Program-made: the position numbers and the translations under genes | Source: Klebsiella phage vB_KaeM_KaOmega | Sequence record: MN013077.1 | Length of the DNA stretch: 64,000 nt | Reading direction: 5' to 3' (one strand) | The notes under the pieces: model-generated | The model's input: the letters and a program-made list of their open reading frames with translations, nothing else | The model's database searches: none | Told to the model about the DNA's origin: nothing | Shown: one piece after another, positions 47,410-60,666 of the stretch | How positions within the stretch are numbered: position 1 is the stretch's first letter | How the letters are laid out: each line of letters opens with the position of its first letter

Positions 47410-48350
47410 TTTGTGAGCCAAGGACGGCTCAGATTTCAGATCGGTTTTCGATTTGATATTTGTACCTGATATTTGTGTAGATATTTGAAATCAGATTTCA
47501 ACTCGAAATTCAATTTGAGATTTTATTTGGTATGGCCCGGCGGGCCGGAACCCAGATCTGATTTCTTTTTCAGATTTACTGACCAATGTACCAAACTGAC
47601 TGACCTTTGGTCAATACCTATTGCATCATAAATGTTACATTAAGGGGCTTATGACTCGTTAATGACACATAAACGTTACATAGTGAGAGTTATCCTCTGT
47701 CAGAAAATTTGAGGGTCTCGATCGACTTTTCATTTTGCCGATCGTATTTTCTGTACAGCCCGGCTGTCCGGGGTCTCGATAGAAAAATCGGGGTCTCGAT
47801 CGGTTTTTCGATTTCCAGATCGTATTCTCGATACAGGTACAGGTCTCACGCCGGGGTCTCGATCGAAAGTTCAAAACCCAAAACGTATTCTCAAAATCTA
47901 TACAGAGGTGAAAATCGAAATGCAAATCGTTATCATTATCACGTCGCCCGGGTCGGAATGAGAATCGTTCTCATTTGCAAATGTAACTGATAATCATTCG
48001 CATTTAGGTTGTTGAATGAGAATCATTCTCATCTCCAGAATAGCGGGCAGGTCCGGTGATTGTCTCCGGGTCAATTCTCCCCGCTATGTGTATAATATAA
48101 CCCAGGCCCGGCCCGGTGGCAAGCGTCTTTACAGTTCTTTACAAAACTATTTTAGGCGAACTACCGGCGATCCACCTTCCGACCTGGCCCCGGTGCCCGG
48201 TACGTTAGCCCCGCCTTTTCGCCGTGGGGTGGCGTCTCCTCTCCTGTATGTGTACATTATGCACCAGGCCAGCCGGGCCGTCAATACCAAAATCAAAATA
48301 AATTTTTCTTGACCCACCAGGCCAGCCGGGCCACAATGCAGGCACACCAA
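47410..48350. repeat. non-coding repeat/regulatory region
   Basis: AT-rich iterons: GATATTTG x3 and CAGATTTC x4 (47440-47570). Four GGGTCTCGATCG(A) units each followed by CGTATTYTC..TACAG (47712-47900). Two AATGAGAA-N3-TTCTCATT palindromes (47957-47975, 48015-48032). CCAGGCCMGCCGGGCC x3. Confidence 0.6.
48308..48336 (+). promoter_or_regulatory. sigma70 promoter (TTGACC-17-CACAAT)
   Basis: First promoter of the early array; GC-rich spacer. Confidence 0.5.
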
Positions 48351-48367
48351 CAAAAGGAGATCGACCC

Positions 48368-48700
48368 ATGCAACAGACGAAATATTTTATTGAAGGAACA
48401 GCCGCCGCCCACGCCGGGCAGATCCGCGCCTGCCGCTACAATAAAGAAGAGAACCGCCGGGAATGGTTCGCCGGGTTCGATAGTGTGGATCGTGGCTATG
48501 CCGTGTTTAAGATCCTCCCTGGTCCCGGCGCTGTTAAGCTGGCTGACCTGGACCCCGTTTATATTGGTGGCGTTAAACAATGCCAAGATCGCGCCGTTAC
48601 CCTGCAACAGGCAGACCGCGCCGGGCGCTATGTCATTTATGATATGGCAACGGGCAAGCCGTACCAGGAAAGCACAAAATTAAATTACAAAAATATTTAA
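48368..48700 (+). CDS. early small protein
   Basis: 110 aa; AAAAGGAG RBS. Confidence 0.5.
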   Translation: MQQTKYFIEGTAAAHAGQIRACRYNKEENRREWFAGFDSVDRGYAVFKILPGPGAVKLADLDPVYIGGVKQCQDRAVTLQQADRAGRYVIYDMATGKPYQESTKLNYKNI

Positions 48701-48708
48701 AATAATGC

Positions 48709-48737
48709 TTGACGGGGCCGACGATAGGCCCCATAAT
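48709..48737 (+). promoter_or_regulatory. strong sigma70 promoter with spacer hairpin (TTGACG-GGGCC-N7-GGCCC-CATAAT)
   Basis: Consensus -35 and -10 with a 17-nt spacer and AT-rich UP element. Confidence 0.7.
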
Positions 48738-48789
48738 TAACCACATAGCGACGCACACCGCGCCGCACTAACAAAGAGAGACCGTCATC

Positions 48790-49227
48790 ATGTTACATTC
48801 AATCAATAAAGAGCAAAAACTGTACGTCCTGAAGTGTGGCAACGGCTTTACCTGCTATGGGTTCGAAGTGCTGGACACAAACGCCCGCAAGGTTAAACAG
48901 TGGTTAGAATCTGAAGGTGCAACAGTCGAGGATCTCCCATATCGCAAGGGCACAAAGAAGCATTATAAAGCCTGTCAAGATATGATCGCCGCTGGTTGTG
49001 CTTATCATGCCAGAACGGGCAAACGCTGCCTTGCTGGACTCACCAAACAATTAAAGGGCCTGGAGGGTCGCCGGGTAGAGGTTGTCACCATGTACGGCGA
49101 AAAACGCCGCTTTATTGTGGGCCGTTCTACTGGCTGGATGCCTGCCCACTTAGAGATCGCCCGCGTCAACAGTAGCGGCGGCATGAGTGCAGAGCAGGAA
49201 TATAAATCTGTAACTATCGTAAAATAA
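48790..49227 (+). CDS. early protein (145 aa)
   Basis: Conserved leader CATAGCGACGCACACCGCGCCGCAC..GAGAGACCGT. Confidence 0.5.
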   Translation: MLHSINKEQKLYVLKCGNGFTCYGFEVLDTNARKVKQWLESEGATVEDLPYRKGTKKHYKACQDMIAAGCAYHARTGKRCLAGLTKQLKGLEGRRVEVVTMYGEKRRFIVGRSTGWMPAHLEIARVNSSGGMSAEQEYKSVTIVK

Positions 49228-49230
49228 ACG

Positions 49231-49259
49231 TTGACACCGGGGCCACCTAGCCCCATAAT
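49231..49259 (+). promoter_or_regulatory. sigma70 promoter with GGGGCC/GGCCCC spacer hairpin
   Basis: TTGACA-17-CATAAT. Confidence 0.7.
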
Positions 49260-49309
49260 ACAAACAAGCCCGGCAAATGGTGCCCGGCAAAATCAGAGAG
49301 TAAAAGAAA

Positions 49310-49531
49310 ATGGCTAAAGTAACCTATAAAAAATCACGTGGCGTTTCCTCTGTTAACCTGGCGGCGGTTGTAACCCTGCCCGCATACCGTACCCGTGACG
49401 AGGCGCGCGCCGTTGCCAGTAAGATCCGCGCCGCTGGCGTGACCCCGACAACGCCAACCAAAACGGCGGACGGCTGGCGAGTTACCGCAAAGCATAACGG
49501 CGGCACACTTTCCCGCAACACTCACCGCTAA
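49310..49531 (+). CDS. early small basic protein
   Basis: 73-aa ORF. Confidence 0.45.
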   Translation: MAKVTYKKSRGVSSVNLAAVVTLPAYRTRDEARAVASKIRAAGVTPTTPTKTADGWRVTAKHNGGTLSRNTHR

Positions 49532-49540
49532 CCAATTGCA

Positions 49541-49562
49541 GGCCCCCGGCGGGGGCCTTTCG
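49541..49562 (+). terminator. hairpin with weak T-tract (possible terminator or processing site)
   Basis: GGCCCCCG-GCGGGGGCC followed by TTTCGTGT. Confidence 0.35.
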
Positions 49563-49577
49563 TGTGGAGTCAGTAAC

Positions 49578-49922
49578 ATGACCAAACAGATCTACCATGT
49601 ACCGATCACGCCGCTTTTCCGTTGTCATATCTTTTATGACTGTAATGATCTTGCGGGGCAATGGATCGGCGATACCGATCAACAATATGATTTCCCGGAA
49701 TGGGACGAACTAAACCGCCGTGTAAGCAACGCCGCACACAATGCCGATCCTGATAGCCTGGCGGACGTGGAACACTTCCCCGGCGGGGCCGCTTGTTTTC
49801 CTTATATTGAGATCACCGCGCCAACGTGGGCGCTATGTAAAGCGATGGGCGACGCCGTGATCCGTTGCATCCTGGACAATGGCGGGATCGTCGAACCAAA
49901 AGACAACGGAATAAATATTTAA
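49578..49922 (+). CDS. early protein
   Basis: ATG at 49578. Confidence 0.4.
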   Translation: MTKQIYHVPITPLFRCHIFYDCNDLAGQWIGDTDQQYDFPEWDELNRRVSNAAHNADPDSLADVEHFPGGAACFPYIEITAPTWALCKAMGDAVIRCILDNGGIVEPKDNGINI

Positions 49923-49941
49923 ATTATTTTCGTTTTAGGGG

Positions 49942-49970
49942 TTGACGCCCGGCGGCGTTACCCTCATAAT
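49942..49970 (+). promoter_or_regulatory. sigma70 promoter (TTGACG-17-CATAAT)
   Basis: Consensus hexamers. Confidence 0.6.
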
Positions 49971-50022
49971 GTATCACATAGGGCGACGGAATAACCCGCC
50001 GCCAAAACCAAAAGGTAACAGT

Positions 50023-50262
50023 ATGCAAACCGTAATGATTAGCCACCCGGATCACGCTTCAGACTTCTACGCCCCGATTTACGCGCCGCTTGAATGGCAA
50101 CGCGCCGGACTGCAAAAAACCGCCACGGGCTACGGCACAAAGATCCCGACGTCCTACATGTTGGACTATCAAGGCAAGCGCCGCCGGATCTACGTTGACC
50201 AGTACAGCAACAGCGGCCACACTTACATAATGATCAAAGGCGAAAAAATTACGGTCTGCTAA
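50023..50262 (+). CDS. early small protein
   Basis: ATG at 50023; leader CACATAGGGCGACGG... Confidence 0.45.
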   Translation: MQTVMISHPDHASDFYAPIYAPLEWQRAGLQKTATGYGTKIPTSYMLDYQGKRRRIYVDQYSNSGHTYIMIKGEKITVC

Positions 50263-50271
50263 AAATAATTG

Positions 50272-50301
50272 TTGACCAGGGGCCGGGTTAGGCCCCATAA
50301 T
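50272..50301 (+). promoter_or_regulatory. sigma70 promoter with spacer hairpin
   Basis: TTGACC-18-CATAAT. Spacer GGGGCC-gggtta-GGCCCC. Confidence 0.7.
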
Positions 50302-50333
50302 ACCAGACATACCAAACAAACGAGGCTTTAAAA

Positions 50334-50564
50334 ATGAATCTGACTACTATCGGCGCTAACCAAACTATGATCACCCTGGCAAATGGCGCACAGGTTTTCT
50401 TTTCCTACAATACCCCGGTTGCGGCATACCTGCCCGGCGAGGGCTACTTGGTGACCGCCACAAAGCACAGCGCCACCACCTCAAAGCATGTTAACGCTTG
50501 GGCTGGCAAAGGTTGCGAGACCCGCCCACAGGAATTTTTTGATAATCTGATTAAATCCGCTTGA
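50334..50564 (+). CDS. early small protein
   Basis: 76-aa ORF. Confidence 0.45.
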   Translation: MNLTTIGANQTMITLANGAQVFFSYNTPVAAYLPGEGYLVTATKHSATTSKHVNAWAGKGCETRPQEFFDNLIKSA

Positions 50565-50590
50565 CGTTGGTTTATGCTGGGGTATATAAT
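50561..50590 (+). promoter_or_regulatory. sigma70 promoter (TTGACG-18-TATAAT)
   Basis: Consensus hexamers, no hairpin. Confidence 0.6.
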
Positions 50591-50642
50591 CCCCGGCATA
50601 GGCAAGCGAAAGCAAACAACCAAACCGAAAGGATAGTAAACG

Positions 50643-51023
50643 ATGAACATTATCAACACTGTAAACGCTAACGAAATCAAAGAAATTTCCGTAACTGGTA
50701 AACGTTGGTTCCAACGTAGCGCCGGGAACACTTACCACAGTGTAAGCCTGGCGGCGCTGGTATCCGTAGAAGTGGCGGACCGTTTAGGCGCTAACCAATA
50801 CGGAAACAAGTCCGGCGACGTGTGGATCGACCTGGCTTATGTTGGTTTCGCTTATGGGTATGAGCGCGGATTTGAACAAACCGCATTAAGTGCAATGATC
50901 GAGGCGGTGAAGGATTCCCCGGCGGCGTGGCGTAAAATGGTTTACGCTTGCCAGGCGGCGGCGGATCTGGGGGTTGTTTACACTGATAACGTTTACGACG
51001 TAAGCCGCAAAAAAGATTTATAA
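50643..51023 (+). CDS. early protein
   Basis: 126-aa ORF. Confidence 0.5.
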   Translation: MNIINTVNANEIKEISVTGKRWFQRSAGNTYHSVSLAALVSVEVADRLGANQYGNKSGDVWIDLAYVGFAYGYERGFEQTALSAMIEAVKDSPAAWRKMVYACQAAADLGVVYTDNVYDVSRKKDL

Positions 51024-51029
51024 TTGTGG

Positions 51030-51059
51030 TTGACACGGGGCCGGGTTAGGCCCCATAAT
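51030..51059 (+). promoter_or_regulatory. sigma70 promoter with spacer hairpin
   Basis: TTGACA-18-CATAAT. Confidence 0.7.
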
Positions 51060-51091
51060 ACCCGCACACCAACAGAAAAGAGATTCACACC

Positions 51092-51301
51092 ATGATCAAC
51101 GAACAGCAAGTAAACGACGTTAAACATGAGGCTTACCAGGTGGCGATCCGTAGCGGTTCCCGCGCCGCCTTTAATCTGGTTGTTGAGTTGTACCCAGAGC
51201 AGGCGCAAAATATCTTGATGCAGGTATCCGTTTTACTGGAGGCGACAAAGCACACCAAATTAAGCGCCGGGATCGACCGCCTCGCAAATAGTTTAAAATA
51301 G
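51092..51301 (+). CDS. early small protein
   Basis: 69-aa ORF. Confidence 0.45.
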   Translation: MINEQQVNDVKHEAYQVAIRSGSRAAFNLVVELYPEQAQNILMQVSVLLEATKHTKLSAGIDRLANSLK

Positions 51302-51304
51302 TTG

Positions 51305-51333
51305 TTGACATCGGGGCCACCCGGCCCCATAAT
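51305..51333 (+). promoter_or_regulatory. sigma70 promoter with spacer hairpin
   Basis: TTGACA-17-CATAAT. Confidence 0.7.
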
Positions 51334-51383
51334 CTGATACATAGCGACGCACAACGCGCCGCACAAAATAGAGAGACCGTAAA

Positions 51384-51749
51384 ATGACTACTTCCACCAA
51401 AAACACCGCCGCTACTGCCGCCGTTCGCGCTTACGTTGTATCTGTTATCGACTTTGAAGGCACCGACGCCGAAAAGCTGAAATTTTTCTTTGATACCCTG
51501 CAATCTGAATACGGGCACGAGGTTAGCCGCTTGGGTCCACAACGCGCCATCACGGAATATCTTCGCGGCCTGCCGTCGTCAATCAATCATGCTTTTATGA
51601 ATCATGAGATCCTTGATCTTTTGTCTGAATGGGGTTACATTCATTTCCACACCACAGCAGCCCAGGAAGAATGGGAGTTAGATCAGTATTGGACACGTTT
51701 GGCGGGTTCTCTGATTATTCAGGCACGTAAGCACGGGGTGATTGAATGA
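51384..51749 (+). CDS. early protein
   Basis: 121-aa ORF. Confidence 0.5.
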   Translation: MTTSTKNTAATAAVRAYVVSVIDFEGTDAEKLKFFFDTLQSEYGHEVSRLGPQRAITEYLRGLPSSINHAFMNHEILDLLSEWGYIHFHTTAAQEEWELDQYWTRLAGSLIIQARKHGVIE

Positions 51750-52060
51750 TTACAGTTCTAACCTTGATCGGGTTAGCGGCGGCGGCGCTGTACTGCGTCG
51801 CCACTTACAAGGCGTCAGTTTGGCGGAAGGGTCAAAAAATGTACGGCTATTTTGAATATGAGTACAAAGGGGAGAAGGGATCAAGCCGGGACTATGGCGC
51901 GATGTTAGAGATCGATATGGTTGGCGCTATGAATTATCGCCAGGAGTTAGGCGCGGCGATCACTTATGAAGTTTATGATCCCTCAGAAGAGAAGATCGGG
52001 GAGATAATTGATCAACGTTACTATATGGAACAGCAACAAAACAAACGCCGGAGAAAATGA
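51746..52060 (+). CDS. early membrane-anchored protein
   Basis: 104 aa with an N-terminal TM helix. Confidence 0.45.
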   Translation: MITVLTLIGLAAAALYCVATYKASVWRKGQKMYGYFEYEYKGEKGSSRDYGAMLEIDMVGAMNYRQELGAAITYEVYDPSEEKIGEIIDQRYYMEQQQNKRRRK

Positions 52061-52062
52061 GA

Positions 52063-52197
52063 ATGATTCACACTAATATTAACCGCGATAAACAACCGCG
52101 CCGCGCCCGTCTCTCATATGCTGAAGCAGGCGAGCGCCTGCAACGTGAGAAGGCCAACAAACAACAGCGCCGTAAAACGCGCTATAACTGGGAGTAA
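52063..52197 (+). CDS. tiny basic protein (44 aa)
   Basis: Found by hand; GGAG RBS. Confidence 0.25.
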   Translation: MIHTNINRDKQPRRARLSYAEAGERLQREKANKQQRRKTRYNWE

Positions 52198-52243
52198 CCG
52201 CCCCCGGCATGGAAACACCAGGCCAAACCGTTTAAACCGCACA

Positions 52244-52270
52244 GGGGGCCGCTTAGGCCCCTTATTTTTG
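52244..52270 (+). terminator. rho-independent terminator
   Basis: GGGGCC-gctta-GGCCCC followed by TTATTTTT. Confidence 0.6.
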
Positions 52271-52286
52271 ATCTACGGGGTACACA

Positions 52287-52514
52287 ATGCAAAACCTTTA
52301 CAGCATGACCGAATTTATCCGATTGTTAGCAGGTCGCCCGATGGGGTTTACCTGCCTTTACCTGGTAACCGACGGCAAAGGCTATCGTATAACGTCCAAA
52401 TCATTAGCCGCCATTGCAGCGCGGGAAGGGGTGAAGATCTCCACCTCCCAGGCGCTGATTGTGGACCCGGCGACCGTGGCGACGATTGAGGCGATCCGGG
52501 TTACCGTAAAATAA
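52287..52514 (+). CDS. early small protein
   Basis: 75-aa ORF; no dedicated promoter seen. Confidence 0.4.
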   Translation: MQNLYSMTEFIRLLAGRPMGFTCLYLVTDGKGYRITSKSLAAIAAREGVKISTSQALIVDPATVATIEAIRVTVK

Positions 52515-52538
52515 TTTAAAATATTTTCATCCTGGGGC

Positions 52539-52567
52539 TTGACGTCCGGCCCCGGTTCCCCCATAAT
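52539..52567 (+). promoter_or_regulatory. sigma70 promoter (TTGACG-17-CATAAT)
   Basis: Spacer CCGGCCCCGG. Confidence 0.65.
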
Positions 52568-52617
52568 CTAACCCATAGCGACGCACACCGCGCCGCACAA
52601 ACAAAAGAGAGACCGTT

Positions 52618-53034
52618 ATGACTTCCCCAATTTTCCGTATCAAATCAGGCTTATCGGCTTACGCATTATCTTGCGGTTACTTCCAGCGTATCGAGTCAGA
52701 GATCACCGGGGAAGATATCCGGGTTGACCTTTGGCATGAGTCGGGCCACTTCCACGCCCGCGCCCACAATTTTACAACCTCCACTCGGATCGAATGGGTA
52801 ACAGAAAGTAACCTTGACGACGCCCGCACACAATGGGCCGCGCTTGTCAAACAAATTTTTGGCGACGTGATCCGCACCATTAAAAAGGATAAGCGCTACA
52901 CCGTAAACCGTGAGTTTGCCGGAGAGTCATCACCCGCTTATGTGACCCGCTTTTGTGGCGAATGGGTATCAAACAGCGATACCGCGCCCGGCGCATGGGT
53001 AAAAGCCGCCGAACACAACGCCGAAAGAATTTAA
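52618..53034 (+). CDS. early protein
   Basis: 138-aa ORF. Confidence 0.5.
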   Translation: MTSPIFRIKSGLSAYALSCGYFQRIESEITGEDIRVDLWHESGHFHARAHNFTTSTRIEWVTESNLDDARTQWAALVKQIFGDVIRTIKKDKRYTVNREFAGESSPAYVTRFCGEWVSNSDTAPGAWVKAAEHNAERI

Positions 53035-53043
53035 AAATAATTG

Positions 53044-53072
53044 TTGACGGGGCCGACGATAGGCCCCATAAT
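53044..53072 (+). promoter_or_regulatory. sigma70 promoter with spacer hairpin (identical to the one at 48709)
   Basis: TTGACGGGGCCGACGATAGGCCCCATAAT. Confidence 0.7.
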
Positions 53073-53103
53073 ACCCACAGATAAGCAAACCGGAGTTAGA
53101 CCA

Positions 53104-53256
53104 ATGAAACATTATCTTGTAAACATTCCTGGCGTGGCTGGCCCGCTTAAAGTTTTCGGCTATGATGAACAGGACGCAAGAAAGCGCCTACGTGATCGGG
53201 AAGGTTTCGGATCACGCCTCCCACGGGGCACAAAATTTTATTTGCAAAACGCTTGA
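53104..53256 (+). CDS. tiny protein (50 aa)
   Basis: ATG at 53104. Confidence 0.35.
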   Translation: MKHYLVNIPGVAGPLKVFGYDEQDARKRLRDREGFGSRLPRGTKFYLQNA

Positions 53257-53282
53257 CGTGTGGTTATGCCGTCCCTTACAAT
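53253..53282 (+). promoter_or_regulatory. sigma70 promoter (TTGACG-17/18-TACAAT)
   Basis: Leader ACAAACGA...AACGAGG. Confidence 0.55.
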
Positions 53283-53334
53283 GACGGCATAGACAAACGA
53301 AAGCAAACCAGACAACCAAACGAGGGTTACAATT

Positions 53335-53586
53335 ATGTTTGAAGTATTCGCCGGAATGTGTTTTTATGCTGCCGCCGCTTTAAAACAGTGTGATGATTAC
53401 ACCGTTGAAGCATACGATGATCAATTAACGTGTGAGATCGTCGCCAATGGCTACCGTCAGGACCCGCGCTGGATTAACCCGGCTTGCATACCGGGGCCGG
53501 AAGTGGAAGCAATGCCGGAGGGTGATCCGTGGCTTGAACCTGTACCGCCTGCCGATCATTTCAATGTTAACCCGGCACAAAAATAA
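53335..53586 (+). CDS. early small protein
   Basis: 83-aa ORF. Confidence 0.45.
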   Translation: MFEVFAGMCFYAAAALKQCDDYTVEAYDDQLTCEIVANGYRQDPRWINPACIPGPEVEAMPEGDPWLEPVPPADHFNVNPAQK

Positions 53587-53589
53587 TTG

Positions 53590-53617
53590 TTGACGTGTGG
53601 TTATAGGTCTGTATAAT
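53590..53617 (+). promoter_or_regulatory. sigma70 promoter (TTGACG-16-TATAAT)
   Basis: Consensus hexamers. Confidence 0.6.
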
Positions 53618-53660
53618 GCGGACCTATAGACAAACGAAACGCCACCAAACGAGGCACAAA

Positions 53661-54020: not shown

Positions 54021-54023
54021 GTA

Positions 54024-54052
54024 TTGACCAGGGGCCGGAAAGGCCCCATAAT
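54024..54052 (+). promoter_or_regulatory. sigma70 promoter with spacer hairpin
   Basis: TTGACC-17-CATAAT. Spacer GGGGCC-ggaaa-GGCCCC. Confidence 0.7.
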
Positions 54053-54268: not shown

Positions 54269-54271
54269 TTG

Positions 54272-54301
54272 TTGACGCCGGGCACCGTCCCGGCTTACAA
54301 T
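54272..54301 (+). promoter_or_regulatory. sigma70 promoter (TTGACG-17-TACAAT)
   Basis: Spacer CCGGG-N7-CCCGG. Confidence 0.55.
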
Positions 54302-54330
54302 GACCTCACACAAACAAACGAGGCTATAAC

Positions 54331-54627: not shown

Positions 54628-54779
54628 ATCCGCATAAACTTTTAATCACCAGCTACACCAGCAAGGCGGATCGCCGTGAAACTTTGGACCGCTTAACCCG
54701 CTATTATCAGGAGGCCGGGCACAATAAGACAACCGCCCGCGCCCTGGCTAAAAAACGTTTACGTTTTGGTAAAAATTAG
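54624..54779 (+). CDS. tiny basic protein (51 aa)
   Basis: ATGA overlap with the upstream gene. Confidence 0.3.
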   Translation: MNPHKLLITSYTSKADRRETLDRLTRYYQEAGHNKTTARALAKKRLRFGKN

Positions 54780-54780
54780 C

Positions 54781-54809
54781 TTGACGCCCGGCCCGAAAGG
54801 GCCGATAAT
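54781..54809 (+). promoter_or_regulatory. sigma70 promoter (TTGACG-17-GATAAT)
   Basis: Spacer GGCCC-gaaa-GGGCC. Confidence 0.6.
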
Positions 54810-54861
54810 CTCTCACATAGGGCGGGGAATGGTTCCCCGCATTATCTAAGAGGTTATGAAC

Positions 54862-55014
54862 ATGTTTACTTTGATGACTTGGGAACACGAATCAAGCGCC
54901 CCGATCCGCCGGACCTTTGAAAACTTATGCGCTGCTTATCGCCTGGCGCAAGGCGGTTACTATAAAGCCCAAATCATCGACGAAAACAATATTGTAATGT
55001 ACGAATTTAAATGA
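54862..55014 (+). CDS. tiny protein (50 aa)
   Basis: AAGAGG RBS. Leader hairpin GGGCGGGGAATGGTTCCCCGC. Confidence 0.35.
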   Translation: MFTLMTWEHESSAPIRRTFENLCAAYRLAQGGYYKAQIIDENNIVMYEFK

Positions 55015-55043
55015 TTGACATCCGGCCCGAAAGGGCCGATAAT
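55015..55043 (+). promoter_or_regulatory. sigma70 promoter (TTGACA-17-GATAAT)
   Basis: Near-identical to the promoter at 54781. Confidence 0.6.
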
Positions 55044-55076
55044 GACCCCCACACCAAACAAAAGAGAGACCGTAAA

Positions 55077-55283
55077 ATGATTACTATGATTCTGCAAAAG
55101 TCCCGCCTGATTGATGTTACCGTCACCCTGTCCGCTTGCGGTGAATCATCCCGCCGGGCCGATCATTACCAGGTTACCGCTGTAAGCGACAACGGCGCGA
55201 TCCTGCTGTCTGAGGCGACCCCCGCGCTACATGAGGCATTTTTGACTTATTCGAAGTGGAAAGGGCCGGAAGAAATAAAATAA
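55077..55283 (+). CDS. early small protein
   Basis: ATG at 55077 with GAGAGACCGT leader. Confidence 0.45.
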   Translation: MITMILQKSRLIDVTVTLSACGESSRRADHYQVTAVSDNGAILLSEATPALHEAFLTYSKWKGPEEIK

Positions 55284-55290
55284 AAAGTAG

Positions 55291-55319
55291 TTGACGGCGG
55301 GGCCGATAGGCCCCATAAT
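55291..55319 (+). promoter_or_regulatory. sigma70 promoter with spacer hairpin
   Basis: TTGACG-17-CATAAT. Confidence 0.7.
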
Positions 55320-55353
55320 ACCACCACACCAAACGAATAAAGAGAATCACAAA

Positions 55354-55608
55354 ATGTTAAAATTCATCAAATCACTTTTCACCCGTACCGCCCCGGCTTG
55401 CAAGTTGCCACCCCTGGAGGCGAAAGGTGTGATCGCTCGCAAAGTCTCAGAATTGTTTATCATTTCATTGGTTCACAATGGCGGCGACTGTTACGAAATC
55501 ATCGAAATGGGCCGCTACACTAAAACAGGATCAAGCCGTGTCCGCTACGGTGAACACCGCGCCCGGAATCATTTTGATTCTGTATGCTGTATGGTCGGTG
55601 CAAAATAA
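55354..55608 (+). CDS. early small protein
   Basis: ATG at 55354. Confidence 0.45.
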   Translation: MLKFIKSLFTRTAPACKLPPLEAKGVIARKVSELFIISLVHNGGDCYEIIEMGRYTKTGSSRVRYGEHRARNHFDSVCCMVGAK

Positions 55609-55611
55609 ACC

Positions 55612-55640
55612 TTGACGGGGCCAACGTTAGGCCCCATAAT
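55612..55640 (+). promoter_or_regulatory. sigma70 promoter with spacer hairpin
   Basis: TTGACG-GGGCC-N7-GGCCC-CATAAT. Confidence 0.7.
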
Positions 55641-55690
55641 GTATCACACAGGGCGACACAACGCCGCCCACAAACAAAAGGCAGACCGTT

Positions 55691-56053
55691 ATGATCTTCA
55701 ATATCACCGAACTGAAAAAGAAAATGTCAGAGATGCTCTTCAATATTAGTGAATACGGGCACCCGTCCTACACTATCTTTGAGGCTGTTTTGTCAAAGTG
55801 CCAAAAGTTCGAATTAGTGATCGAGGTTGTACCGGGTCGCCTCCTGAAGTTGGGATCTGGCAAGTGGGGTTATAAACTTGATGCCTACGTCCAACAGTTA
55901 GCCGCCGGGGCCGATCCTATGGCAGATGATTATTGCGATGATGCCGACACTATCGCAAGCGTGGACGGTGAATATTGCCGGACAAAGGCGGCGCTTTTTG
56001 AAGCGATCAGCGAAGTTATCAACGAAGCAAAAGAAAACGTAATAACACGATAA
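55691..56053 (+). CDS. early protein
   Basis: 120-aa ORF. Confidence 0.5.
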   Translation: MIFNITELKKKMSEMLFNISEYGHPSYTIFEAVLSKCQKFELVIEVVPGRLLKLGSGKWGYKLDAYVQQLAAGADPMADDYCDDADTIASVDGEYCRTKAALFEAISEVINEAKENVITR

Positions 56054-56067
56054 GCTAAAAAGAATTG

Positions 56068-56097
56068 TTGACGCCGGGAAGCGTTACGGGTTATACT
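56068..56097 (+). promoter_or_regulatory. sigma70 promoter (TTGACG-17/18-TATACT)
   Basis: Spacer CCGGG..CGGG. Confidence 0.5.
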
Positions 56098-56145
56098 CTT
56101 TTCATCGGGTCACAACAGACCACAACAAACAAAGAGAGAAACAAA

Positions 56146-56223
56146 ATGAGCGTAATCTTCCTAGTATCTGTTTTCGTAGCTATTGCATCTTCTACCGCAA
56201 TTTGTATCAAACTGGGATACTAA
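56146..56223 (+). CDS. tiny hydrophobic peptide (25 aa, MSVIFLVSVFVAIASSTAICIKLGY)
   Basis: AAAGAGAGA RBS. Directly downstream of the promoter. Confidence 0.3.
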   Translation: MSVIFLVSVFVAIASSTAICIKLGY

Positions 56224-56227
56224 TTAA

Positions 56228-56620
56228 ATGACTACTTTCAACGTTTTACACTTAAACGCTTTTATCGCGGGTTACATTGAGGCAATGTTTTTTGCAGAGT
56301 CCGCCACCGATAGCGACGGCGAAGAGATCGAAAGTTTAGCCGGGTATGAGTTAAGCGCTGAAGCCCTGGACGCTGCCCGCATGGATTGTGCCCGCTTTAT
56401 GGACGTTGCGCCTCTGTTACTCAAAGGGGCAATGCTGGCAGGGGTTGACTATGACCACACCCAGGCGGGCCGGGATCTATGGTTTAGCCGTCAAGGGCAC
56501 GGCGTAGGATTCTGGGATCGCGGACTTGGGGCGATCGGTGATAAACTCCACGACGTGGCGAAGACTTTCGGATCAAAAAATCTGTTTATCAATGATGCCG
56601 GATTTATTGAGGTAGAATAA
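56228..56620 (+). CDS. early protein
   Basis: 130-aa ORF. Confidence 0.45.
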   Translation: MTTFNVLHLNAFIAGYIEAMFFAESATDSDGEEIESLAGYELSAEALDAARMDCARFMDVAPLLLKGAMLAGVDYDHTQAGRDLWFSRQGHGVGFWDRGLGAIGDKLHDVAKTFGSKNLFINDAGFIEVE

Positions 56621-57081
56621 TGAACCTTACAGATCTGAAGTATTACGACGAATTGACCCCAGCGGCGCAAGCTGAAGCCCGGCGCAACGTTGCCGCTAGT
56701 GTGCAGACTCACCACGGGCGGGAAATCGGAAAGGCGTTTTTTAAATTCCAGCGGGACCCAAACAAGGCGATCAATGACCCGCTGCACATCCGCCGGATCA
56801 TCAATGGCGGCGAAGCGTGGCGCAAGATCCGCCAGGAGGGCGACGCCTATCTAATCCGCTTTATCCGGTCCAATAAAGTGATCTTTACTGATTGCGGGGC
56901 GTATGTAGCGTATGTGGACGCCTTCACAATGTTTATTGATGGGTTGGAATACATACCCACAGCCGAACAGCAAAAGACTCTTAGAACGCCTTACATCGAC
57001 GTTAACGGGCGGGGGCCTGCGTTTCATGATTGGCTATACCGTATGCACCACAAAATAAAGTTTTTCATGATCCGGGGTTGA
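56620..57081 (+). CDS. early protein
   Basis: 153-aa ORF. Confidence 0.5.
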   Translation: MNLTDLKYYDELTPAAQAEARRNVAASVQTHHGREIGKAFFKFQRDPNKAINDPLHIRRIINGGEAWRKIRQEGDAYLIRFIRSNKVIFTDCGAYVAYVDAFTMFIDGLEYIPTAEQQKTLRTPYIDVNGRGPAFHDWLYRMHHKIKFFMIRG

Positions 57082-57106
57082 CACCCGGCGGAATAGGGCC
57101 GATAAT
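57078..57106 (+). promoter_or_regulatory. sigma70 promoter (TTGACA-17-GATAAT)
   Basis: Leader hairpin GGGCGGGGAATGGTCCCCGG, as at 54820. Confidence 0.6.
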
Positions 57107-57159
57107 GTCTCTCATAGGGCGGGGAATGGTCCCCGGCCCAATGAACTGGAGTCAGTACA

Positions 57160-57411
57160 ATGGAAATCAAACACGTAATTTCTGCAAACGTCGCCGTTTT
57201 AGGTTCTGTAAGTGAAACCCGTGTGAGTCTGGCGAAATGGTGCGCCGCTCAAACTTTCGGGAGTTACGGCGAAAAGGTAACAGAGGTTAAGCGCTTGCTT
57301 TCCTTTGGCAACGTGGGCCGCAAGTTGTTAACAGAGGATATCGCCCGCCGGGTTGAGATCCATTATTCACTTGCTCAAATCATCGTAAAAGAGATCGAAA
57401 GCGCAATTTAA
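57160..57411 (+). CDS. early small protein
   Basis: 83-aa ORF. Confidence 0.45.
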   Translation: MEIKHVISANVAVLGSVSETRVSLAKWCAAQTFGSYGEKVTEVKRLLSFGNVGRKLLTEDIARRVEIHYSLAQIIVKEIESAI

Positions 57412-57449
57412 CCCGGCCCGGCCCCGAAAGGGGCCAAAAGGAAAATAAA

Positions 57450-57629
57450 ATGACTTATTTCAGAAACTTAGAAAACGGGCATTATTACACCATATCCGCC
57501 GGGCGGGTTCGTTGGTGGCTGGATCATTCTGCCGTGTGGGTCCGTAGTGAACATCTAAAGCCGTGTGACCTTGCCCACTATCCGTATATTGGAACCACCA
57601 CCGGACCAGGGGCCGAAAATGGGCGCTAA
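57450..57629 (+). CDS. tiny protein (59 aa)
   Basis: Preceded by a GGCCCC-gaaa-GGGGCC hairpin with no promoter hexamers. Confidence 0.3.
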   Translation: MTYFRNLENGHYYTISAGRVRWWLDHSAVWVRSEHLKPCDLAHYPYIGTTTGPGAENGR

Positions 57630-57843
57630 TACCCGCAACCGCTACGGCATAACGCGCCGTTTCGGGGTCTGCTATATGCTGGCAGATGATCCACAATACA
57701 GGGCATTGCTGGAGGCTTACCAGGTCACCAAACTGGACGCCCAAAAGGGCCGGGCCGAACATGCCGCCCACGTAGCGAACATCAAAGCGTTACACGAATT
57801 TTTAGCCGTCGCTGAAAAGCGCCACGACATCCGCCACCGTTGA
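57619..57843 (+). CDS. small basic protein
   Basis: ATG at 57619 overlaps the upstream stop. Confidence 0.35.
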   Translation: MGANTRNRYGITRRFGVCYMLADDPQYRALLEAYQVTKLDAQKGRAEHAAHVANIKALHEFLAVAEKRHDIRHR

Positions 57844-57854
57844 GAGTGCAAACC

Positions 57855-58049
57855 ATGATCACAGAATCCGAGATCCGCCAAACGTTAGCCGCCTTGCGTT
57901 ACCTCCACGCCTTGCGCCGGGCAAGTGATCCGACTTATGCCGGGTCATGCCTGGCTAACGATGCCGAAAACGGGATCGCCACACTGAAAGAATTAAACGA
58001 CCGCATGAGCGACAGCGACCGATCCGACTTCATAGGGGGCGAAATATGA
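57855..58049 (+). CDS. small protein
   Basis: ATG at 57855. Confidence 0.4.
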   Translation: MITESEIRQTLAALRYLHALRRASDPTYAGSCLANDAENGIATLKELNDRMSDSDRSDFIGGEI

Positions 58050-58246
58050 TCGACTTATCCGGCGTGAAGCCTGGCGATCTGGTCTGGGCCTTTGACTATC
58101 CGACCGATCCACCGTATGACGTTTGCAACGCTTGCAAACTGGAGTATTTGAACACCGGGAAAAATGAGTACCAGTTACGCCGCCCGGATAACGGCGTGAT
58201 CGTTTACTTTCGCTACATCGCACCAATTGAAGGGGCCAAACCATGA
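58046..58246 (+). CDS. small protein
   Basis: 66-aa ORF. Confidence 0.4.
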   Translation: MIDLSGVKPGDLVWAFDYPTDPPYDVCNACKLEYLNTGKNEYQLRRPDNGVIVYFRYIAPIEGAKP

Positions 58247-58557
58247 TCGCCATTACGCCAACCGTTTTAGATTGGTATCGCCAACAGATCGCGCCGCCGC
58301 TGGCTATCTTCAAACAGGCAGAAAGCAAACAGCGCCGGATCTCCATTCATGAGATCATCACCCTTAACGCCGGGGCGGTCCCGTTCAATCCTGGGGCGGG
58401 TCGCAACATGGGCAACACGTTAGCGCTTTTGAGTTTACGCCGGAAACGGTCCGCCCTTACCTTGGATTCACTCCGCATGATGGGAGATCCGCACCGGGTA
58501 ACAGGTCGCCGGATCGCCAGGGCCTGGGAACGGGCAAACGGTCGAAAGGTTGTATAA
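58243..58557 (+). CDS. hypothetical basic protein
   Basis: 104-aa ORF. Confidence 0.45.
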   Translation: MIAITPTVLDWYRQQIAPPLAIFKQAESKQRRISIHEIITLNAGAVPFNPGAGRNMGNTLALLSLRRKRSALTLDSLRMMGDPHRVTGRRIARAWERANGRKVV

Positions 58558-58975
58558 AATAACAGTGTTTACAGGGGTTGAATTGTTCGCCCCTTTTTGT
58601 TATCCTTTTTTCATGCGATGGCACCTGATGCAGGGGGAGACAAACACCGGACCTGCCCGCTATTCAGGAAGGCGGACCGGACCTGGGTCTCTCCGGATAG
58701 ATGAGAATGGTTATCATTCCCAATCAAATCAAATACATACTTTCAAACCGTTGTCAAATTTATTTCGTACTCCTGTATAAATGTACATGGTTCTAAAACG
58801 TCCTGAATCGCGTTTTAAGCCGTTTTCCCCTTACCCGGTATCCTACATCATAAAAATATAGATCTCTCGAAATCGGACTTTCGCACTTTTTGCCCTTGCA
58901 AACGTAAAAATTTTATGTTAGACCTGAAGGGCTGAAAGCCGGGTTTACGTTGACAAAACTTTACAATTCTCCCTA

Positions 58976-59003
58976 TTGCATCGATCCGCCATTGTGCTAT
59001 TAT
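58976..59003 (+). promoter_or_regulatory. candidate sigma70 promoter (TTGCAT-16-TATTAT)
   Basis: Upstream of gene 59057; leader is of the GGGCGGC family. Confidence 0.4.
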
Positions 59004-59056
59004 TTATCACGTAGGGCGGCAATGACGCGACGGCCCGCAGAGAGGAGACAGTAAAA

Positions 59057-59428
59057 ATGAACCTGACCAACTTCAACCGCTACTACATCCGCGACGAACA
59101 GGCAAACGCTTTTGGGTACGATCGTTCGTTCGAAATGCAACAGCACGTAGGCGGCGCAAAGTTACACGTTGAAACTGTTACCTTTGAAAACTATTTTATG
59201 GCGACCTTTGACAATGGTTTACAGATCTCCATTGAGTACAAAGGCGGCGTGATGACTCTCGCCACTGAGGATAAATTCCGCAAAAAAGATCTTTTGAATC
59301 ATCCAGGTTTTGCCAGCAACAAAGAATTATTGATTAAAATTTATATCCGCTGGGTAGTGGGCCGCATCGCAACAGAAGAGCAGATCGCCGCCCTGGTGGA
59401 TCTGGCTCTGAATCTGGATTTAAATTAA
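59057..59428 (+). CDS. early protein
   Basis: 123 aa; GAGAGGAG RBS. Confidence 0.5.
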   Translation: MNLTNFNRYYIRDEQANAFGYDRSFEMQQHVGGAKLHVETVTFENYFMATFDNGLQISIEYKGGVMTLATEDKFRKKDLLNHPGFASNKELLIKIYIRWVVGRIATEEQIAALVDLALNLDLN

Positions 59429-59431
59429 TAG

Positions 59432-59460
59432 TTGACAAGGGGCCGGAAAGGCCCCATAAT
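59432..59460 (+). promoter_or_regulatory. sigma70 promoter with spacer hairpin
   Basis: TTGACA-17-CATAAT; identical core to the promoter at 54024. Confidence 0.7.
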
Positions 59461-59505
59461 ACCCACTCAAGCAACAAACCACTAAGAACACTGGAGACCG
59501 TAAAA

Positions 59506-59820
59506 ATGACCAAATCTAAATTTTTCGAAATGCTGGATCGCTACCTGTCAAGCCATAACGAGTGGGCCAAACTTGGCAACGGTTACGACTCATACAAGGC
59601 CGAACAGTTAAAACCTTATGTTTTCCATGAGGACCCGGCGAACCTGGAGAAATGGAAAGCTAAAGATCCGTCCTATCCTTGGACCGCTCACGCTTCAGGT
59701 TTTACCCTGGCTGATTGTTGGCATGTTGAGGTAATGCAACATAAAACCGCTGAAGCGGCAGAAAAGCAAAACAAAATTTTCACCCGCTGGATCGCAGACT
59801 ATCAAAAGGCCCGCGCTTAA
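59506..59820 (+). CDS. early protein
   Basis: 104-aa ORF. Confidence 0.5.
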   Translation: MTKSKFFEMLDRYLSSHNEWAKLGNGYDSYKAEQLKPYVFHEDPANLEKWKAKDPSYPWTAHASGFTLADCWHVEVMQHKTAEAAEKQNKIFTRWIADYQKARA

Positions 59821-60065
59821 TGTCCCGGCTTTTTAAAATCAATCTTCCATTGTGGGCCGCTTTAGCGGTCCTCATTGCCTTTTTTGGCGATACGGTCAAC
59901 AATTGGATTTTGTCCGCTGTACTTGGACCGGATCAACTGGTCACAACATTTTTAAACGCTTTCGGCGCTACACTGGCAACGGCCCGCCTTGCCTATCGTG
60001 GCAAATCAATAAACCGTTATGATCTGGCGCTATCACTGCCCGCCCTGGTTACCTGCCTAAACTGA
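59820..60065 (+). CDS. membrane protein
   Basis: 81 aa with two TM helices. Confidence 0.45.
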   Translation: MSRLFKINLPLWAALAVLIAFFGDTVNNWILSAVLGPDQLVTTFLNAFGATLATARLAYRGKSINRYDLALSLPALVTCLN

Positions 60066-60067
60066 AG

Positions 60068-60093
60068 AGGCCCGCCACCCCGGCGGGCTTTTT
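60068..60093 (+). terminator. rho-independent terminator
   Basis: GCCCGCC-acccc-GGCGGGC followed by TTTTTGTT. Confidence 0.75.
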
Positions 60094-60122
60094 GTTGCAT
60101 CCAGATCCGTGACCTGTTATAA
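60094..60122 (+). promoter_or_regulatory. sigma70 promoter (TTGCAT-17-TATAAT)
   Basis: Near-perfect consensus. Confidence 0.65.
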
Positions 60123-60169
60123 TACTTACTCACCCGGCAACCGGGCCAAACAACTGGAGACCGTAAAAC

Positions 60170-60370
60170 ATGACAACCGCCAACCGCCTGATCGATGTTC
60201 TGAATGATGCAAAGGCAAACCGTTTAGCCGTGGCAATCAAAGAAGAGGCAAACGGGCTGATCCTGGCAAGTGTTACCGATGGCTGTTACACTGAATCATT
60301 CCATGCTGATACACTGGAGTATCTCGCCCACAGATTAGAAATGATCGTTGACGATTGGCGGCTATTGTGA
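60170..60370 (+). CDS. last small protein of the rightward array
   Basis: 66-aa ORF. Confidence 0.45.
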   Translation: MTTANRLIDVLNDAKANRLAVAIKEEANGLILASVTDGCYTESFHADTLEYLAHRLEMIVDDWRLL

Positions 60371-60385
60371 TCCGACCAAACCAAA

Positions 60386-60414
60386 CAGGCCCGGCATAGT
60401 CCGGGCTTTTTAGT
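60386..60414 (+). terminator. rho-independent terminator
   Basis: GGCCCGG-cata-GTCCGGGC followed by TTTTTAGTG. Confidence 0.65.
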
Positions 60415-60666
60415 GCCTGCAATCCGGCCCGGTATTGGTCCGACTCCCCCAGCCTATAAGCCCTTATCATTTAACATTGTGGAAATCAACATCTAATTTT
60501 ATTCATAAAAACATGCATAATTGAATACAGGAGGCGCTAACCCACTAGCCAGGGTTGAGAGTAGCGGGCCGCATAGGGCCTTACAGCGCGTTTTAGCCCC
60601 TATTGACTTCTATCTGCAAACGTGTATCAGGCCACAACTGACTAAATCACCTTTTCTTTACATAAC

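Follow-up and report, generated by a model that had tools for sequence, protein, structure and literature searches.

Promoter-early stem-loops (PeSLs) were defined by Arbiol 2010 (PMC2839356) in the T4-like phages RB49 and phi1 (see also Comeau 2014, PMC4122927). A PeSL consists of an AT-rich upstream stop codon, near-perfect sigma70 boxes, a stem-loop "generally involving GGGG...CCCC", a Shine-Dalgarno (SD) sequence and an ATG; the stem-loop is most often found in the stretch that separates -35 from -10 or overlapping the -10, and PeSLs adjoin ORFans in plastic regions (PMC2839356). In reporter assays, one PeSL stem-loop of RB49 reduced lacZ placed downstream to roughly the same extent as rrnB T1, and ~13,000 Miller units were measured for one PeSL promoter; PeSL-PeSL recombination explained indels and yielded mini-circles (PMC2839356). 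In the searchable literature PeSLs are described only for T4-like phages, and otherwise appear as passing citations. Here we describe an array of promoter cassettes with GC-rich stem-loops at positions 48300-60420 of a 64,000-nucleotide (nt) stretch of DNA (the window) from Klebsiella phage vB_KaeM_KaOmega (MN013077.1). It is a new lineage-level case of PeSL-type composite cassettes, built on a promoter set that has already been published, and not a new class of element.

Buttimer 2020 (PMC7344957) reported a putative sigma70-like promoter, AAAA(N3)TGTTGAC(N17)TATAAT, among short hypothetical open reading frames (ORFs) of Certrevirus genomes, with 13 sites in CB7, 21 in CR3, 21 in CR8 and 13 in CR9. 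The sites are the same as those described here, and orthologous cassettes are found in CB7, CR3, CR9, phiTE, PBES02 and F1M1E. As both motif and sites were reported in that study, the promoter array itself is already published. The same paper treats the spacer as N17, contains no occurrence of "stem", "hairpin" or "palindrom", and draws no link from the Certrevirus promoters to PeSLs or to gene shuffling. The rV5 paper (PMC3606486) gives 33 promoters and 20 terminators and mentions no promoter hairpins. No transcript map of any Vequintavirinae phage was found in the literature, and an ONT-cappable-seq paper on Pseudomonas phages did not address promoter-internal hairpins.

With Enterobacter phages SS-2025 and vB_ExiM_F1M1E the region shares 91-97% identity across 81-87% of its length. 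Alignment is patchier (29-79% covered, 84-90% identity) to Cronobacter phages PBES 02, CR3, CR8 and CR9, Pectobacterium phages phiTE and CB7, and others. The annotated relatives are recorded as Vequintavirinae, genus Certrevirus, and nearly all genes in their counterparts of the region are annotated as "hypothetical protein". These alignments identify the stretch as the early gene region, high in plasticity, of a Certrevirus (rV5-like myovirus). ORF calling with SD-like motifs gave 36 co-directional + strand ORFs of 25-153 amino acids (aa) between 48368 and 60370, in agreement with the approximately 36 small genes counted in an earlier note on this DNA. PHROG families were matched 32 times for the 36 ORFs, and none of the 25 families listed carries a functional description. 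Pfam matches in the array were limited to T4 Gp30.7 (gene 33, 59057-59428, E = 1.8e-43), DUF7170 and a sub-threshold SPOR. The earlier statement that none of the products is recognisable was therefore nearly right. In the whole window there were no Rfam matches at the gathering threshold, and no tRNA or tmRNA genes were found. Tandem Repeats Finder gave nothing relevant in 44000-64000, including no ToxI-like repeats of the phiTE escape type, so the cassettes do not form a tandem array.

Between 48309 and 59432, 21 promoters on the + strand consist of TTGAC(N), a spacer of 16-18 nt and (C/G/T)A(T/C)A(A/C)T. A separate consensus scan gave 20 sites matching at least 10 (10-11) of 12 positions, every one of them on the + strand, and two additional promoters with a TTGCAT -35, at 58976 and 60095, were read directly off the sequence. 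An A-rich AAAATAAttg tract lies upstream of ~15 of the 21. Consensus boxes, a spacer of 16-18 nt and an AT-rich, UP-like element upstream had all been noted earlier, and are borne out by these counts. The exact cassette was searched for as TTGAC-N0-4-GGGGCC-N4-7-GGCCCCATAAT, the spacing after TTGAC being left at N0-4 since this offset varies. This pattern occurs 10 times in the window, nine times inside the region and once on the - strand at 9500-9528, compared with no occurrences in 100 shuffles. The earlier note's observation of more than 20 near-identical cassettes is thus real as regards the ~23 sigma70-type promoters, but it overstated the count, as the GGGGCC...GGCCCC form is found at only nine of them in the region. 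An early array driven by many sigma70-type promoters with GC stem-loops is supported.

A perfect GC hairpin of at least 5 base pairs (bp) lies entirely within the spacer of 13 promoters, with the stems GGGGCC/GGCCCC (9), GGGGC/GCCCC (1), CGGCCC/GGGCCG (2) and GCCGGG/CCCGGC (1). In three promoters (50561, 53253 and 53590) a hairpin of 8-9 bp has the -10 hexamer as its loop, and in another three (49942, 52539 and 57078) the hairpin crosses or overlaps the -35. The promoters at 48309, 56068 and 58976 have no hairpin or weak stems of 4-5 bp only, and at 60095 a canonical terminator abuts the -35. The free energies of the promoter-associated hairpins range from -7 to -21 kcal/mol. A perfect hairpin of at least 5 bp is present in 13 of 20 spacers in the window, against 1.5 expected from composition-matched shuffles. 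In eight related genomes the corresponding figure is 76 of 143 cassettes against 11.5 in shuffles. Furthermore, the spacers are 74% G+C, compared with ~50% genome-wide. The hairpin is a real feature, far beyond chance. The perfect stem-loop placed by the earlier note in the spacer of every cassette accordingly holds for 13 of the 20 spacers and not for the hairpins across the -10 or -35 or for the promoters with weak stems or none, and its loops measure 4-7 nt instead of 5-7 nt. The absence of a U-tract after the spacer hairpins was correctly noted; their tail is the -10 hexamer itself.

As in PeSLs, the upstream stop codon sits in an AT-rich tract just before the -35, and a near-consensus sigma70 promoter follows, which in PeSLs is TTGACA, 17 nt and TATAAT and here is predicted with spacers of 16-18 nt. 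A stem-loop with a G-run and a C-run lies in the spacer, over the -10 or sometimes over the -35, and the SD sequence and start codon of the next gene form the 3' end of the cassette. The cassettes cluster beside small genes without assigned function in a plastic region, of which relatives cover 29-87%, and indels and gene replacements between relatives break at cassettes. The flank sequences are alike as well (AAAATAA..TTGACG, ACACATACCAAAC), and one small gene is shared. When ~100 kilobases (kb) of RB49 were run through the same scan, the cassettes recovered were strikingly alike and nearly superimposable on those of the window, as exemplified by tttaaaataaatgcTTGACGgggatc-gcga-gatccccTATACT in RB49 and tttaaaataatgcTTGACGgggcc-gacgata-ggccccATAAT here. 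Other RB49 cassettes read tttaaaaaaagttgTTGACAggggatc-acc-gatccccTATACTacacacataccgaaacg and, across the -10, ATGGGAGTA(gtatta)TACTCCCAT, and one, tttaaaataaatgcTTGACGgggatcgcgagatccccTATACT, has its entire upstream half in common with 48695-48718 of the window.

There are also differences. The present phage belongs to the Vequintavirinae and not to the Straboviridae, and its stems are GGGGCC/GGCCCC, CGGCCC/GGGCCG and GCCGGG/CCCGGC, whereas PeSL stems are GGGGATC/GATCCCC. Its -10 is usually CATAAT or GATAAT, unlike the TATAAT of PeSLs, because the last stem base doubles as the hexamer's first base. Reporter-assay activity of promoter and terminator, and mini-circles arising during infection, are on record only for RB49 and phi1. 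The resemblance to T4 promoter-early stem-loop cassettes proposed in the earlier note is correct. Its qualification, that a stem-loop inside the spacer would set these cassettes apart, is not, since PeSL stem-loops are commonest at that place (PMC2839356) and RB49 shows the same arrangement.

Comparison of 40 distinct spacer-hairpin cassettes from the eight genomes revealed 11 stem types, all perfectly self-complementary, and 23 loop sequences of 3-7 nt. The stem types include GGGGCG/CGCCCC and, in Salmonella phage SSBI34, the flipped GGCCCC/GGGGCC. Orthologous promoters with the same flanks can carry wholly different hairpins, such as CGGCCC-gaaa-GGGCCG at 54781 of the window and GCCGGGA-accg-TCCCGGC in PBES02, CR3 and CR9. 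An alignment of all spacer-hairpin cassettes, suggested in the earlier note as a check, was run with MAFFT, and no single structure line could be drawn because the 5' arm shifts with loop length. Pairing was therefore judged by shuffles and stem-type counts, and RNAalifold was confined to the family of hairpins across the -10. For that family the hairpin is recovered, with compensatory double changes in 8 of 13 consensus pairs and one inner pair appearing as GC, UA, CG and GU. Stems that covary while loops vary freely argue that the pairing itself is under selection. It is improbable, then, that the hairpin is functionless, be it the passenger of a successful promoter cassette or a relic of terminators on which the promoters were built. 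Many cassettes are near-identical paralogues (families D1-D8), recombination between cassettes is evident and the same stem exists as a true terminator, all of which would suit such an origin. It is contradicted by pairing that is kept across different stems and by compensatory changes between orthologues, by loops that drift while stems stay perfect, by the bias of the spacers towards G+C, and by the recurrence of the design in Vequintavirinae, Krischvirus RB49 and Pakpunavirus.

The cassettes also coincide with places where the genomes of relatives diverge. A BLAST search of the region against seven relatives gave 109 internal homology boundaries, of which 42 fall between -25 and +60 of a -35, although such windows make up 14% of the region. 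Genes 2, 5, 16, 20, 23 and 33, which are replaced or absent in relatives, have cassettes as their boundaries, or else one cassette and the start codon; for gene 9 a cassette forms the upstream boundary and the junction with gene 10 the other. Six of the seven relatives cease to be homologous at 51309, within a -35. Phage CB7 lacks gene 20, and a single chimeric cassette replaces the unit of cassette, gene 20 and cassette, with an upstream flank from 54781 and a downstream flank from 55015. The crossover lies in the shared core TTGAC-N-CCGGCCCG..GGGCCGATAAT. Breakpoints at cassettes together with the CB7 chimera are the signature of PeSLs, and they support the cassette duplication and shuffling considered in the earlier note. 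The product of gene 20 is 50% identical to RB49p053 (25/50 residues, E = 1e-15), which is located directly behind a spacer-hairpin PeSL promoter, the cassette whose upstream half is shared with the window (L008 (RB49) 33115-33335). Both genes stand behind such cassettes; thus a small gene and a cassette type are shared between phage families.

The gaps that hold the cassettes are compact. The distance between the upstream stop codon and the -35 ranges from -4 to +24 nt (median 3), a TGA lies inside or abuts TTGAC in four cases, and the A-rich AAAATAA tract usually takes in the final codons of the upstream gene together with its TAA stop. The ATG is 29-53 nt away from the end of the -10, in two classes of ~30-36 and ~43-53 nt. 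The short leaders are C/A-rich and unstructured, and most of the long ones have a stem after a conserved CATAG, which is the probable transcription start site. SD-like GAGG or GGAG motifs precede the downstream ATG. In read-through RNA, folding predicts the hairpin as the sole stable structure of each gap, followed by an open leader.

A GC hairpin is present in every intergenic gap of at least 38 nt, with or without a promoter, and in none of the junctions where genes overlap or abut. Three of the gaps with a GC hairpin are promoterless. Outside promoters the region has six GC hairpins (49540, 52243, 57420, 58573, 60070 and 60389), five of which have T-rich tails. Among the GC gap hairpins on the + strand of the region, a terminator scan flagged only the one at 52243-52263. 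The promoters at 48309, where the array starts, and 58976, after a 499-nt gap, have no adjacent co-directional gene upstream and no hairpin. On this distribution, the hairpin tracks the gap and not the promoter. With GC stems of 5-8 bp, loops of 3-7 nt and a position 10-25 nt past the stop codon, the hairpins resemble intrinsic terminators, and the identical stem forms the canonical terminator at 52243-52263. In the promoter hairpins, however, the T-run is replaced by AUAAU or, when they lie across the -10, by an A/C-rich leader (ACAAACG), and full termination is for this reason not expected.

The earlier note had suggested that the hairpin might be an operator for timed shut-off. In such a role the palindrome would act in duplex DNA, where a dimeric protein of phage or host would bind it and close the early promoters at a set time. 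The inverted repeats do lie where a repressor would block RNA polymerase. Furthermore, the 3' arm of the GGGGCC and CGGCCC types, the two commonest, always ends exactly on the first base of the -10 hexamer, and early shut-off must exist in such phages, rV5 encoding an Srd-like anti-sigma candidate (PMC3606486). Nevertheless, we regard an operator as quite unlikely. What is conserved is pairing and not sequence, and a single sequence-specific protein would not recognise 11 stem sequences with 23 loops of 3-7 nt at three positions (spacer, across the -10 and across the -35). In addition, identical stems occur with T-runs in promoterless gaps, and GNRA loops are confined to the sense strand, a bias that one would not expect if the site were a symmetric duplex.

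This strand bias is seen in the 4-nt loops of distinct cassettes, of which 7 of 16 are GNRA and none of 16 its complement. Non-Watson-Crick pairs within good stems are mostly G.T rather than A.C; this list is weak evidence, as the stem finder used for it missed the GGGGCC cassettes with 7-nt loops, and the class counts from that finder were set aside. Both biases suggest a structure of the sense strand. They would suit the non-template DNA strand as well as RNA, and a DNA-level role has therefore to be considered, in which a cruciform or non-template hairpin makes initiation depend on supercoiling or single-strand binding proteins, and hairpins across the -10 would offer that element to sigma70 as a single-stranded loop. 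Early promoters of phage N4 carry hairpins of 5-7 bp whose extrusion is aided by supercoiling and single-strand binding protein, and it is in this extruded DNA form that a T7-like RNA polymerase carried in the virion recognises them. An engineered Escherichia coli promoter with a palindromic spacer is reportedly regulated by cruciform extrusion. In the present phage, too, short GC hairpins are part of early promoters, being located within or around core promoter elements in 19 of 23. However, arms of 5-9 bp with loops of 4-11 nt make energetically poor cruciforms, the same stems are seen with T-runs in gaps that lack a promoter, and where they lie with respect to the promoter varies. Related promoters of SSBI34 have AT-rich, hairpin-free spacers. 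Unlike those of N4, the promoters have sigma70 boxes of consensus type at -35 and -10, and CB7, a relative, reportedly has no RNA polymerase gene (PMC7344957). An N4-type hairpin promoter is rated low on these two grounds, and a DNA-level hairpin of any kind is in our view unlikely.

Processing by RNase III, another proposal of the earlier note, would cut polycistronic early RNA into stable monocistronic messages. The early RNA of phage T7 is processed in this way, and the hairpins do separate cistrons, in transcripts many of which must be polycistronic. RNase III needs a helix of ~20 bp, or roughly two helical turns. The perfect stems are 5-9 bp long (at most 13 bp counting G.U), there is no T7-type internal loop, and no Rfam family was matched in the window. 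Because the stems are so short, RNase III sites are ruled out in practice, and we give them next to no chance. Taken together, the earlier note is supported on the early array, the PeSL likeness and the shuffling, and not on the supposed departure from PeSLs, the operator and RNase III.

We consider it probable that each cassette combines a PeSL-type early promoter with an attenuator or 3'-end protector acting in read-through RNA, and also serves as portable homology for gene shuffling. The predicted order of parts is an upstream stop in the A-rich, UP-like tract, the -35 TTGAC(A/G), the stem-loop, the -10 (C/G/T)ATAAT, a C/A-rich leader and SD/ATG. Given the near-consensus elements, unmodified host E-sigma70 would initiate at every cassette as soon as infection begins; for the PeSLs of RB49, activity of promoters of this kind was shown (PMC2839356). 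The transcript of a cassette would begin past its own hairpin, which would be made only in RNA coming from upstream promoters. In that RNA it would act as the stem of an attenuator or leaky terminator, and would protect the 3' end of the upstream message. Such attenuation would prevent a build-up of transcription along ~20 strong tandem promoters. In gaps without a promoter, the same stems usually bear a T-run instead. Gaps of no more than 62-103 nt, in which the spacer is the promoter's sole stretch free of sequence requirements, would account for the placement of the hairpin within the promoter. Repeated cassettes would supply 30-50 bp of portable homology for the swap, loss and gain of ORF modules, as supported by the genome comparison.

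Several points weigh against this interpretation. Promoter use, timing and 3' ends are all deduced from sequence, and PeSLs were defined in T4-like phages, whereas this phage is of another lineage. Spacer hairpins followed by AUAAU, and hairpins across the -10 followed by a U-less A/C-rich tail, are by their sequence poor intrinsic terminators. Attenuation may thus be weak, or the effect may be on RNA stability only. The fixed end of the 3' arm could reflect a promoter-linked role, or the mere common descent of the copies. The wobble and GNRA counts were taken over related sequences and are not independent. The same is true of the breakpoints, many of which are inherited, so that independent events number fewer than 42. 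Finally, z-scores for the folding of single sequences span -0.7 to -4.8 and are modest for some spacer hairpins (-0.7, -1.6), and the structural case consequently rests on the ensemble and not on single copies.

The cassette design is found beyond Certrevirus. Among IMG/VR contigs, those of 142-153 kb contain several copies of the exact GGGGCC cassette, which is also present as a single copy in several contigs of 91-98 kb and in two of ~20 kb. Four of the contigs (L011, L017, L019 and L031, 91-94 kb) belong to the Pseudomonas Pakpunavirus group, with 100% identity between L019 and Pseudomonas phage vB_PaeM_C2-10_Ab02. In the early promoters of Pakpunavirus, TTGACA-N16-TAGAAT, a hairpin of 8-9 bp, GGCCATTC(ctgta)GAATGGCC, lies across the -10, and each genome has one cassette GGGGCCC(gaaaa)GGGCCCC-ATAAT; a PeSL-like design therefore exists in Pseudomonas myoviruses too. 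In a ~90 kb IMG/VR contig (L015), which gave no megablast match among GenBank phages, TTGACA-AAGGCCC-gaaa-GGGCCTT-TATTAT cassettes flank a homologue of gene 25. The design thus recurs in three lineages, Vequintavirinae, Krischvirus RB49 and Pakpunavirus, and promoter-embedded hairpins appear to be a common trait of large virulent phages dependent on host sigma70. A different explanation for this spread is that the stem-loop is a single-stranded or extruded DNA structure recognised in structure-specific recombination or nicking, rather than chiefly an RNA attenuator, and that the cassettes are truly mobile, integron-like, between unrelated families of virulent phages. This would explain the architecture shared by Straboviridae (RB49), Vequintavirinae and Pakpunavirus, the near-identical halves comprising UP-like element and -35, and the gene found behind cassettes both in RB49 and here. 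We hold it to be a long shot, and prefer promoters with a read-through hairpin that double as homology.

The features of the array are collected in Table 1, where 5'UTR stands for 5' untranslated region and z for the folding z-score.

Table 1. Positions in the window of promoter cassettes, free-standing hairpins and associated features
Feature	Position	Strand	Remarks
Early "hyperplastic" array	48300..60420	+	36 small co-directional ORFs, ~23 promoter cassettes
First array promoter, TTGACC-17-CACAAT	48309..48337	+	4-bp GGCC/GGCC stem only; no co-directional gene upstream
Cassette, spacer hairpin GGGGCC(gacgata)GGCCCC, then ATAAT	48709..48737	+	5'UTR stem GCGACGC..GCGCCGC at ~48748-48766
Cassette, spacer hairpin GGGGC(caccta)GCCCC, 5 bp	49231..49259	+	
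Promoterless-gap hairpin AGGCCCCC(ggc)GGGGGCCT, then TTCGTG	49540..49558	+	terminator-like
Cassette	49942..49970	+	hairpin TGACGCC(cggc)GGCGTTA, 49943-49960, overlaps -35
Cassette, spacer hairpin GGGGCC(gggtta)GGCCCC	50272..50301	+	
Cassette, hairpin across -10 GTTTATGCTGGGG(tatataat)CCCCGGCATAGGC	50561..50603	+	upstream TGA stop within -35; z = -4.8
Cassette, spacer hairpin GGGGCC(gggtta)GGCCCC	51030..51059	+	
Cassette, spacer hairpin GGGGCC(accc)GGCCCC	51305..51333	+	
Intrinsic terminator in promoterless gap, AGGGGGCC(gctta)GGCCCCTT, then ATTTTTG	52243..52263	+	same GGGGCC/GGCCCC stem
Cassette, hairpin across -35 CTGGGGCT(tgacgtcc)GGCCCCGG	52532..52567	+	promoter TTGACG-17-CATAAT at 52539
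Cassette, spacer hairpin GGGGCC(gacgata)GGCCCC	53044..53072	+	
Cassette, hairpin across -10 TTATGCCGTC(ccttacaat)GACGGCATAG	53253..53292	+	upstream TGA within -35; z = -2.9
Cassette, hairpin across -10 TATAGGTC(tgtataatgcg)GACCTATA	53590..53629	+	
Cassette, spacer hairpin GGGGCC(ggaaa)GGCCCC	54024..54052	+	
Cassette, spacer hairpin GCCGGG(caccgt)CCCGGC, then T and TACAAT	54272..54301	+	
Cassette, spacer hairpin CGGCCC(gaaa)GGGCCG, then ATAAT	54781..54840	+	left repeat beside gene 20; z = -3.9
5'UTR hairpin GCGGGGAA(tgg)TTCCCCGC	inside cassette 54781..54840	+	
Gene 20, 52 aa	54856..55014	+	between two cassettes of the same core
Cassette, spacer hairpin CGGCCC(gaaa)GGGCCG, then ATAAT	55015..55043	+	right repeat beside gene 20; z = -3.5
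Cassette, spacer hairpin GGGGCC(gata)GGCCCC	55291..55319	+	
Cassette, spacer hairpin GGGGCC(aacgtta)GGCCCC	55612..55669	+	plus 5'UTR stem GGGCG..CGCCC
Promoter TTGACG-18-TATACT	56068..56097	+	weak 4-5 bp stem only
Cassette, hairpin across -35 CCGGG(gttgaca)CCCGG	57072..57135	+	TTGACA-17-GATAAT at 57078; 5'UTR hairpin CGGGGA(atgg)TCCCCG
Promoterless-gap hairpin GGCCCC(gaaa)GGGGCC	57420..57435	+	no T-run
Promoter TTGCAT-16-TATTAT of Gp30.7-like gene	58976..59003	+	no spacer hairpin; follows 499-nt non-coding gap
Cassette, spacer hairpin GGGGCC(ggaaa)GGCCCC	59432..59460	+	
Canonical terminator GCCCGCC(acccc)GGCGGGC, then TTTTTG	60065..60123	+	T-run enters -35 of TTGCAT-17-TATAAT (60095-60123)
Terminator GCCCGG(catagt)CCGGGC, then TTTTTAG	60389..60406	+	closes array
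Out-of-array cassette TGA-TTGACA-ac-GGGGCC(gaaa)GGCCCC-ATAAT	9500..9528	-	between 667-aa and 133-aa - strand ORFs

At the left end of the array two divergent promoters overlap at 48256-48337; the - strand promoter (48284-48256) reads TTGACG-17-CATAAT, and the + strand promoter (48309-48337) reads TTGACC-17-CACAAT. A 17-nt stretch, CACCAGGCCAGCCGGGC on the + strand, is the spacer of both, in opposite orientation relative to each. At two promoter-like sites outside the array, too, a GC hairpin carries the -10 in its loop, namely GGGGCC(tgtaatat)GGCCCC at 34089-34123 on the - strand and GGCCCAT(atata)ATGGGCC at 38528-38560 on the + strand. Some 5'UTR stems keep an A.C mismatch at one place (48748-48766, 49982-50003, 51344-51362, 52579-52597 and 55651-55669). 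These stems, GCGACGC..GCGCCGC, GGCGACGG..CCGCCGCC and GGGCGAC..GCCGCCC, sit after the conserved CATAG. Phage SSBI34 has an ordinary A-U pair at the mismatch position (GGGCGAC..GTCGCCC), and on the antisense strand the mismatch would become G.U.

Palindromic boxes of the form tGAGAAT-N-ATTCTCa are located on both flanks of the array (47685-48034, 58703-58715 and 60700-61287), with 14 matches at no more than 2 mismatches compared with 2.7 in shuffles. The Fur-box consensus of E. coli is the 19-mer GATAATGATAATCATTATC. The best boxes match this consensus at 17/19 (61275), 16/19 (60700) and 15/19 (58703 and 47922) positions, and sites with at least 13/19 number 36, against 7.7 in shuffles. The box at 60700 directly follows the -10 of a TTGACA-N19-CATAAT promoter at 60667. 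The flank palindromes may be operators for Fur or for a dimeric regulator of the phage. Just left of the array, overlapping the - strand ORF 47659-47925, three copies of a 54-nt unit (CGGGGTCTCGATCG...CGTATTCTC...ACAG; family D10) lie 63-78 nt apart at 47711-47905, and are 69-70% identical to the reference copy. On the right, 60420-61700 is ORF-poor and repeat-dense, with a perfect 18-nt inverted repeat (60803-60820 / 60894-60911), two copies of TTACGTTCCCACGG and three of TTTATCTGCATAA, and no match to an Rfam family. Its counterpart may be the "non-coding" box in the genome map of rV5 (PMC3606486). It might serve as an origin or a packaging site, or be a locus of non-coding RNA genes.

These results show PeSL-type cassettes outside the T4-like phages, in rV5-like phages and, it appears, in Pakpunavirus, with one cassette-flanked gene common to different families. 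They favour the idea of the cassettes as a general device by which large virulent phages relying on host sigma70 express, insulate and exchange small accessory genes. For the annotation of Vequintavirinae genomes the cassettes provide a rule for promoter, terminator and module boundaries. Furthermore, they constitute a natural set of covarying hairpins, differing in stem, loop and position, with which the role of a hairpin in the promoter spacer may be probed.

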